A DNA stretch of 6,579 nucleotides from a virus (Duplodnaviria; Heunggongvirae; Uroviricota; Caudoviricetes). The translations under genes and the position numbers were made by a program. The notes beneath the pieces are model-generated. The model saw only the letters and a list, made by a program, of their open reading frames with translations. It searched no databases and was not told where the DNA came from. The stretch covers positions 1 through 6,579 of the IMG/VR virus record IMGVR_UViG_2778261641_000015; one strand, given 5' to 3'. Shown piece after piece: positions 1 through 811 of this stretch; position 1 is the first letter of the stretch, and the number at the start of each line of letters is the position of its first letter.

Positions 1-324
1 ATGGATGCACAAACACGCCGCCGCGAACGTCGCGCAGAGAAACAGGCTCAATGGAAAGCAGCAAATCCCCTGTTGGTTGGGGTAAGCGCAAAACCAGTTA
101 ACCGCCCTATTCTCTCGCTGAATCGCAAACCGAAATCACGAGTAGAAAGCGCACTGAATCCGATAGACCTTACGGTGCTGGCTGAATACCACGAACAGAT
201 TGAAAGCAACCTGCAACGTATTGAGCGCAAGAATCAGCGCACATGGTACAGCAAGCCTGGCGAACGCGGCATAACATGCAGAGGACGCCAGAAAATTAAA
301 GGTAAATCTATATCACTTATTTAG
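1..324 (+). CDS. N: Antitermination protein N (lambda-like, 107 aa)
   Basis: Complete ORF starting at window position 1. Translation [25 protein letters not shown]... matches lambda N as I remember it, including the Arg-rich N-terminal RNA-binding motif; only a few C-terminal substitutions (ends KGKSISLI). TAG stop at 322-324. Confidence 0.93.
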
Positions 325-811
325 AAAATGCAGATTTAGGGAACAGATAGGAGGCGTTACACCTATGGCATCTCATCCTATGGTTAGAAGGTGGTGCAAA
401 TCCTTCGTATTGAAGTATGGATTTCACAGAAGATTCATAGCATTGAGCGCAAAGATAGTGCATTGGCTGACCGGTATTTGCCGATTTTTTGAGACGATAA
501 ACCACCGTAGCAACAGTAGGTGTATACATCTCATAGTTTTTCTTTTCCTCTTCCCACTTAGAGGCTCGATTTATCTTTTCTTCAAGCTCAATAATCTTGT
601 CCTTAGAAATCATCAAAAGCTCATTAAGTGACATTTGCTGCTGTTGGGCATCCATGAGCTTATCGACAAGTTCGTATGTTTTTTCTTTTACTGAGTAGTC
701 TATTTGCATTTTCTGGATTTCCTTTACTGCGCCAACAGCACTCATCAGAGCACCTCCGGCACCAGAAACTGCATCTGTAATCCTACTTATTATTCCTTTT
801 TCATCAGACAT
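317..811 (-). CDS. Hypothetical protein, 164 aa from the ATG at 811 (ORF track extends to a GTG at 820): Gly/Ala-rich N-terminal segment, charged coiled-coil-like middle, C-terminal CxxC-x23-CxxC zinc-ribbon-like motif; not recognised as any named family
   Basis: Long minus-strand ORF with protein-like composition ([29 protein letters not shown]..., [20 protein letters not shown], ...CAQC...CHRC...). The two plus-strand ORFs covering the same DNA translate to low-complexity junk. ATG at 811 is preceded by AAGAGAG about 9 nt upstream. Region is AT-rich relative to flanks. TAA stop at 317-319 overlaps the last codons of N. Confidence 0.65.

Follow-up and report, generated by a model that had tools for sequence, protein, structure and literature searches.

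The window, as we call the whole 6,579-nt stretch of DNA analysed here, carries the early-left (pL) operon of a lambda-like phage, with the plus strand running in the pL direction. Over positions 1–1500 its identity to Escherichia phage ev099, a lambda-like Radostvirus, is 100%, and over positions 1–1047 its identity to phage HK446 is 99.4%. The genes of the plus strand are N (1–324), ea10 (1068–1436), cIII, kil, gam, bet, and exo. N, the first gene of the operon, encodes an antiterminator of 107 residues (Pfam PF11438, N36; E = 1.5e-26) and shares 96.6% nucleotide identity with lambda N. The next pL-operon gene, ea10 (DUF2528; Pfam PF10800, E = 3.7e-47; lambda homology), forms the right edge of a variable slot that separates it from N. 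The sole Rfam match of the window, the cIII thermoregulator (Lambda_thermo; 1496–1554, plus strand; 88.5 bits), lies where it is expected, upstream of cIII. Farther downstream, in the region before xis and int, a 241-residue ORF (5228–5953, plus strand) encodes a signal-peptide-like N-terminus and has a weak match to Pfam LprI, a lysozyme inhibitor (E = 2.3e-5); possibly it is a further accessory gene.

The slot is occupied by a gene on the minus strand (317–811) that reads from an ATG at 811–809, with an alternative GTG at 820, and encodes 164 residues. The earlier note regarded this gene as novel, a description that does not hold: it is rip1 (ring interacting pore 1), a prophage anti-phage defence gene with a published function and a structure (PDB 9OOX). 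A phmmer search of the PDB aligns the protein with chain L of 9OOX (E = 1.4e-105), and 163 of 164 residues are identical, the sole substitution being Y96 in the window for H96 in HK446. The entry is entitled 'Cryo-EM structure of the Escherichia phage HK446 Rip1 in complex with the phage T6 small terminase'. The gene of the window is thus the counterpart of HK446 gp37, in a different host phage (ev099). The AlphaFold2 model (pLDDT 71.7) has helices in residues 3–90 and a beta-rich C-terminal domain with a four-cysteine motif, and its best Foldseek matches in the PDB are chains M and L of 9OOX. The cysteines of this C-terminal CxxC...CxxC motif (Cys121, Cys124, Cys148, and Cys151) are invariant in 22 homologues.

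Annotation resources say little of this protein. It matches phrog_1244 in PHROGs (E = 4e-53), a family without annotation; Pfam, NCBIfam, and PADLOC give no significant match, and a word-indexed homologue search returns only names of the form 'hypothetical protein'. The family is large, with 2961 cluster representatives at E ≤ 1e-3 in a profile search, and the rip1 gene itself is present in 96 of 5426 complete E. coli genomes. Membership of the SieB family was considered and rejected (BLASTP against lambda SieB, E = 9.4), and the Fc02 exclusion genes (PMC9936078) are unrelated. The RefSeq record of ev099 (NC_049953) leaves rip1 out and annotates a spurious ORF on the plus strand at 365–631 (gp46, 88 residues, hypothetical protein); the annotation of the minus-strand gene is correct in the HK446 record.

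A 2026 review (PMC13434031) of the work of Patel et al. (2026, Nature 651:1060) describes Rip1 as a prophage-encoded protein that is harmless alone. According to the same review, 12 copies of Rip1 surround the 11-mer ring of the small terminase of an invading phage, and the complex forms a membrane pore that causes premature lysis; in Pseudomonas, the portal protein acts as the trigger. The N-terminal part is described there as amphipathic and pore-forming, and the C-terminal half as ring-binding. The mechanism is also cited in PMC13601566. By analogy, the Rip1 of the window would be a single-protein abortive-infection defence, a pore former triggered by rings.

Rip1 and N converge. The stop codon of N is TAG at 322–324 and that of rip1 is TAA, the complement of 317–319, such that the last two codons and the stop of one gene face those of the other over 8 nt (317–324). 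Reading of the sequence and the ORF list confirm this arrangement, which the earlier note had reported. Comparison of the slot junctions offers no basis for a special role of the overlap. The overlap is present in 14 of 16 copies of the window rip1 allele in IMG/VR and reference phages, these copies being essentially one sequence. At other junctions, lambda sieB and N abut with 0 nt between them, P22-type sieB and gene 24 are separated by 15–21 nt, hkaP and hkaQ by 30 nt, and a Pantoea rip1 and N by 3 nt. Among the junctions compared, the overlap is therefore peculiar to the window allele, and we reject a functional role for the overlap itself. In every case the cargo gene and the pL gene before it meet closely, at +8 to −30 nt. 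Since the genes elsewhere abut or leave a small gap, the general feature is tight convergence without space for a terminator, rather than overlap.

The boundaries of the slot are seen in the alignment with lambda, which consists of three segments. The first covers N and stops at the N stop codon, at the junction with lambda sieB. The second (827–912) matches the 86 nt directly upstream of the lambda sieB start, and the third (917–1500) matches lambda from downstream of ral to ea10. Because the homology breaks at the N stop and resumes at 827, rip1 is swapped exactly for the sieB coding sequence. Lambda sieB has the orientation of rip1, and its stop abuts that of N, where the stop regions of rip1 and N overlap. 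The contents of the slot differ among related phages: sieB and ral in lambda, a nun-like gene in phage 434, and hkaQ and hkaP in HK620 and HK630.

Two further observations concern the neighbourhood. Lambda ral and orf28 are missing from the window (912–917, compared with 2466–2805 of the lambda locus L001), and the sequence upstream of rip1 joins the post-ral sequence directly. Just outside the window, ev099 has a NYN-domain gene in the position of rexAB, between a CI-like repressor and N (L002, 1662–2519), and a Proteus prophage that carries rip1 has a NYN-domain gene as well (L021, 5173–5997). The NYN-domain gene may accompany rip1 as a further gene of prophage defence or of accessory function.

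A predicted sieB-type promoter (837–874, minus strand) lies upstream of rip1. It is placed by alignment with the annotated sieB promoter of P22 (alignment A3) and comprises a −10 element, TAAAAT, at 849–844, a weak −35 region at about 874–867, and a predicted start at 837, giving a 5'UTR of 26 nt. A Shine-Dalgarno-like AAGAGAG (820–826, minus strand) lies 8 nt upstream of the rip1 ATG. About 87 nt upstream of rip1 are almost identical to the upstream regions of P22 sieB, lambda sieB, and HK620 hkaP, and the 5'UTR of hkaP is almost identical to that of rip1. The P22 RefSeq record contains the sieB promoter (L012, 2691–2721) and a mapped RNA start (2728). In divergent cassettes upstream of distant rip1 homologues, a −10-like hexamer, TAnnnT, occurs at the same spacing. 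A generic sigma-70 consensus scan reports no promoter upstream of rip1, where the −35 is poor; the site is located through P22 homology. As this upstream region is homologous to an experimentally mapped promoter and start, rip1 probably has a promoter of its own, in agreement with what had been supposed earlier.

The same DNA is related to a small RNA when read on the plus strand. P22 sas was detected by RNA-seq in a 2026 study as a 127-nt species in infected cells only (PMC13397905). Read in reverse complement, it covers the sieB start codon, leader, and promoter, and about 45 nt farther upstream. Positions 803–928 (plus strand) align with this RNA from end to end, with about 60 nt invariant, and are complementary to the start codon, the Shine-Dalgarno sequence, and the entire 5'UTR of rip1; we predict a sas-like antisense RNA for this region. 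The part common to P22 sieB, lambda sieB, and HK620 hkaP (828–914) is a conserved cassette used on both strands, with the promoter on the minus strand and the body of sas on the plus strand. Since the cassette aligns with sas, the promoter cassette would also be an antisense-RNA gene. Whatever cargo gene follows, the variable 5' part of the RNA will by necessity be complementary to that gene's start region.

The sas-like RNA is predicted to form two stem-loops and a pseudoknot. Stem-loop 1 pairs 814–818 with 843–847 and 822–829 with 835–842, stem-loop 2 pairs 856–866 with 871–880, and in the pseudoknot helix b (881–884/895–898) crosses helix a (888–892/907–911). Both stem-loops present the repeated motif CUGUAGGGG. 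The sequence CTGTAGGGGT is a perfect 10-nt direct repeat that is invariant in all cassette variants (alignments A3 and A7). Its first copy (828–837, plus strand) is in the loop region of stem-loop 1 and, on the opposite strand, spans the transcription start; its second copy (862–871, plus strand) forms the apex of stem-loop 2 and overlaps the −35 region on the opposite strand. The fixed CTGTAGGGGT could be a binding site for a protein or an RNA, or a processing signal.

We assessed the fold on a set of 18 variants of the cassette, among them divergent sequences of Edwardsiella, Pantoea, Proteus, and IMG/VR contigs. In the tested fold 82.6% of the cells are paired, a fraction inflated by derivation of the fold from the same 18 sequences, compared with 37–53% in controls with slid partners. 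Pairs changed on both sides number 13, compared with 6–8 in the controls, and the covariation score is 0.191, compared with at most 0.10. None of 500 shuffles reaches the observed values. Compensatory changes across the 18 variants thus support the predicted fold. The fold has many U·G pairs, which would be C·A mismatches on the other strand, indicating that the RNA of the pL strand is the folded molecule. Single-sequence folding of the region is no better than that of shuffles (z = −1.2, −1.8, and −0.4), and RNAalifold finds no covariation among cassettes retrieved by an exact 36-mer. The latter result arises because the exact 36-mer search fixes the core, and divergent cassettes are needed. 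Rfam contains no sas family.

The cassette is more widespread than rip1. It has matches in 988 of 5426 complete E. coli genomes (~18%), as against 96 for rip1, and its exact 36-mer occurs in at least 119 IMG/VR stretches. Among the matches listed and the loci already fetched, the cargo comprises 119 complete ORFs, counted with duplicates: 92 SieB, 16 HK446-type Rip1, and 11 HkaP-type. The Rip1 and HkaP proteins separate cleanly from SieB, and no other class of cargo is found among the matches listed. The sequence on the 3' side of the cassette (915–935 in the window, and the homologous positions of loci L004–L140) exists in two or three versions (CATACTAATAAACACTGCA, CACAATCTTTACTACCGCA, and others). 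These versions combine freely with SieB, Rip1, or HkaP cargo, a sign of recombination within the cassette.

The course of the pL transcript depends on where it can end. A terminator scan of 1–1500 detects six terminator-like sites, compared with 1.1 expected. Beyond N, the pL strand has no convincing terminator until an intrinsic terminator-like element at 1020–1051, upstream of ea10, in which a hairpin (1020–1041, plus strand) is followed by the T run TTTTTTATCT. This region is 99% identical to lambda at about 33.93 kb, and in the phage 434 record the equivalent site, immediately before ea10, is annotated as a terminator. The sole other plus-strand hairpin between N and 1020 (821–843) is weak, has a poor T tail, and is stem-loop 1 of the sas-like RNA. 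The scan thus agrees with the earlier proposal that a pL transcript that has passed N crosses the minus-strand gene in the antisense direction before it meets a terminator. In the HK620 record a tL1-type terminator is annotated inside hkaP; the scan gives no window counterpart within rip1. A consensus scan of the plus strand finds no promoter-like site in 1–1500, which fits a pL origin of any antisense RNA.

In all contexts examined, rip1 runs opposite to the lytic genes around it. In Pseudomonas, rip1 lies between the terminase genes, antisense in the late operon and without the cassette; late transcripts that reach terL must therefore cross rip1. The enterobacterial rip1 loci L185 and L188 are also without the cassette. 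Because Pseudomonas and some enterobacterial rip1 genes are found without it, Rip1 does not need sas. Antisense embedding of rip1 thus recurs independently, with sas as an enterobacterial addition. Rip1 homologues of about 52% identity adjoin the repressor in non-lambda-like prophages with a VapE-type primase, namely vB_EcoM-689R2 (L007), which keeps a divergent sas/PsieB cassette, and a Providencia prophage (L023), which has a partial cassette only.

Among known systems, the closest are P22 sieB/esc/sas and lambda sieB. Like rip1, they are inverted within the pL operon and follow N or gene 24 immediately, and their promoter, 5' region, and antisense-RNA sequence are near-identical to those of rip1. 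SieB and Rip1 are both prophage-expressed abortive-infection functions. The window differs in its cargo, which is unrelated to SieB as judged by the BLASTP value above, in the absence of ral, and in having no evident conserved product of the Esc type.

HK620 hkaP, also present in HK629 and HK630, encodes a distant Rip1 homologue (27% identity, E = 5e-6) that is named 'putative superinfection exclusion protein' in the HK620 record. It shares with rip1 the slot, the orientation, the cassette, and the leader described above, and differs in that hkaQ intervenes before N, with the 30-nt gap, and in the tL1 hairpin annotated inside the gene. The Rip1 of the Pseudomonas Casadabanvirus prophage JBD30, gp30, is 30% identical over 145 residues (BLASTP E = 6e-26) and has been listed as a phage-resistance moron. 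Proteins of this type have the same length and the same invariant cysteine pattern as the window protein and are likewise antisense to a lytic operon, whereas their genes are placed between the terminase genes and are without the sieB/sas cassette.

Two other comparisons concern the mode of control. In Pseudomonas phage JBD26, the defence gene of the Tab/anti-Tab system is on the minus strand, has its own promoter, and lies between the terminase genes, in the slot of the Pseudomonas rip1. Its self-immunity is also switched on by transcription of the lytic cycle, through a protein antagonist encoded on the lytic strand rather than an antisense RNA, and the Tab and anti-Tab proteins are unrelated to Rip1. 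Lambda OOP, which acts on cII, and P22 sar, which acts on ant, are short lambdoid cis-antisense RNAs that control a gene on the opposite strand. They differ from the sas-like RNA in having promoters and terminators of their own and in governing the choice between lysis and lysogeny instead of a defence gene.

Antisense control at the sieB locus is established in P22, where sas switches translation within sieB. The agent is a discrete RNA of about 105–127 nt that masks a translation start, not antisense transcription of the whole gene, and the switch pairs sas with an inhibitor protein, Esc. P22 needs Esc because SieB made before induction persists. Sas is reportedly processed from the pL transcript, a result ascribed to Ranade and Poteete (1993).

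With this direct precedent, antisense logic for rip1 is plausible by analogy. The earlier note proposed an antisense switch that turns the gene on in the lysogen and off upon induction. The switch itself gains from the P22 sieB/sas precedent, the full-length sas homologue, and the inverted gene; the agent has to be revised, as it is likely, again by analogy, to be a discrete sas-like RNA rather than antisense transcription of the whole gene alone. We infer a switch between lysogeny and induction at rip1 in the window phage that would work as follows. The sieB-type promoter, being weak and repressor-independent to judge from its homology to the mapped P22 promoter, would drive rip1 in the lysogen, and Rip1 is expected there. 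When pL fires, upon induction or during lytic infection, transcription would pass N and proceed antisense across rip1 and the cassette. As in P22, the sas-like RNA would be cut out of this transcript. It could then pair with about the first 35 nt of the rip1 mRNA and cover the 5'UTR, the Shine-Dalgarno sequence, and the AUG. Between the head-on transcription from the much stronger pL and the sas-like RNA, new synthesis of Rip1 would stop, presumably lowering Rip1 sufficiently. Silencing would guard the phage's own lytic cycle, most clearly in the infection of a naive cell; in an induced lysogen, antisense silencing alone would leave the Rip1 already made. Taken as a whole, this account, in which Rip1 is on in the lysogen and is silenced in the manner of sas when pL fires, is the one that we favour, with moderate confidence.

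The first alternative, the form in which the switch was originally put forward, dispenses with the small RNA. Strong, N-antiterminated transcription from pL would collide with the weak rip1 promoter, and the two transcripts would form double-stranded RNA over 495 nt, with no discrete small RNA. The space between N and rip1 holds no terminator, tight convergence is general in the sieB slot, and the Pseudomonas rip1 is fully embedded antisense in a late operon even without the cassette, all of which this reading accommodates. It leaves unexplained the conserved, structured cassette and its identity to sas, which is a discrete species in P22 infection (PMC13397905). We consider it unlikely as the full account, noting that collision and the sas mechanism are not mutually exclusive.

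The second alternative regards the architecture as inherited. Rip1 would have been recombined into the sieB slot at its two conserved flanks, the 3' end of N and the cassette; it would thereby have taken over the orientation, the promoter, and the sas sequence, and antisense transcription would be irrelevant. Self-tolerance would result from the phage's own small terminase and portal, which would not trigger Rip1. In line with this, the match to lambda breaks off precisely at the N stop and returns at the cassette, the 3'-flank versions shuffle independently of the cargo as is typical of lambdoid mosaic joints, and the Pseudomonas rip1 is found without the cassette. Furthermore, insensitivity of the phage's own proteins could easily evolve, given that escape from Rip1 maps to single changes in the portal or small terminase, as stated in the review (PMC13434031). 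Against it, the conservation of the cassette far exceeds the needs of a weak promoter, compensatory changes keep the RNA fold in divergent cassettes upstream of distant rip1 homologues, and the inverted orientation recurs in an unrelated type of phage and a different operon. We judge this reading rather improbable.

The last alternative, in which the sas-like RNA blocks the first AUG and leaves Met23 free, so that a truncated Rip1 binds rings without forming a pore and neutralises the full-length protein, is very improbable: the speculative internal start (ATG at 745–743, with a strong Shine-Dalgarno sequence, GGAGG, at 757–753 and a 7-nt spacing; 743–757, minus strand) is close in position to codon 25 of P22 sieB, where esc begins, and would suit the division of Rip1 into a pore-forming N-terminal part and a ring-binding C-terminal half given in the same review (PMC13434031), but Met23 is replaced by Lys in a Citrobacter homologue of 92% identity and by Val in other close homologues, is missing from HkaP and the Pseudomonas Rip1, and the GGAGG merely encodes a conserved Gly-Gly. 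There is no evident conserved Esc-like product in rip1.

On the reading that we favour, the control of rip1 is of a known kind, in essence the P22 sieB/sas logic rediscovered with a different cargo gene. Two points may be new, namely the association of Rip1 with the sas/PsieB cassette and the recognition of the cassette as a conserved, structured module used on two strands. A broader proposal, which we advance tentatively and with less than even confidence, is that the 87-nt sieB cassette is a portable two-strand module, a weak constitutive promoter opposite a structured antisense RNA, that gives any abortive-infection gene recombined next to it control of the lysogen-on, own-lytic-off type. 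At least two effectors that are unrelated to each other, SieB and Rip1/HkaP, would have acquired it across Enterobacterales, and it would serve as the self-immunity device of Rip1, possibly with an Esc-like product from Met23.

Rip1 is a newly described single protein that acts as both sensor and effector and kills the cell when phage assembly rings appear, and an induced prophage that carries Rip1 must itself make the same kind of rings. If the proposed mechanism is true, sas-type silencing explains how lambdoid carriers of Rip1 escape self-killing, and a thirty-year-old regulatory device of P22 is a cassette that can be used again with different defence genes. The cassette, which has matches in about 18% of complete E. 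coli genomes, can conveniently serve to find defence cargo in the sieB slot.
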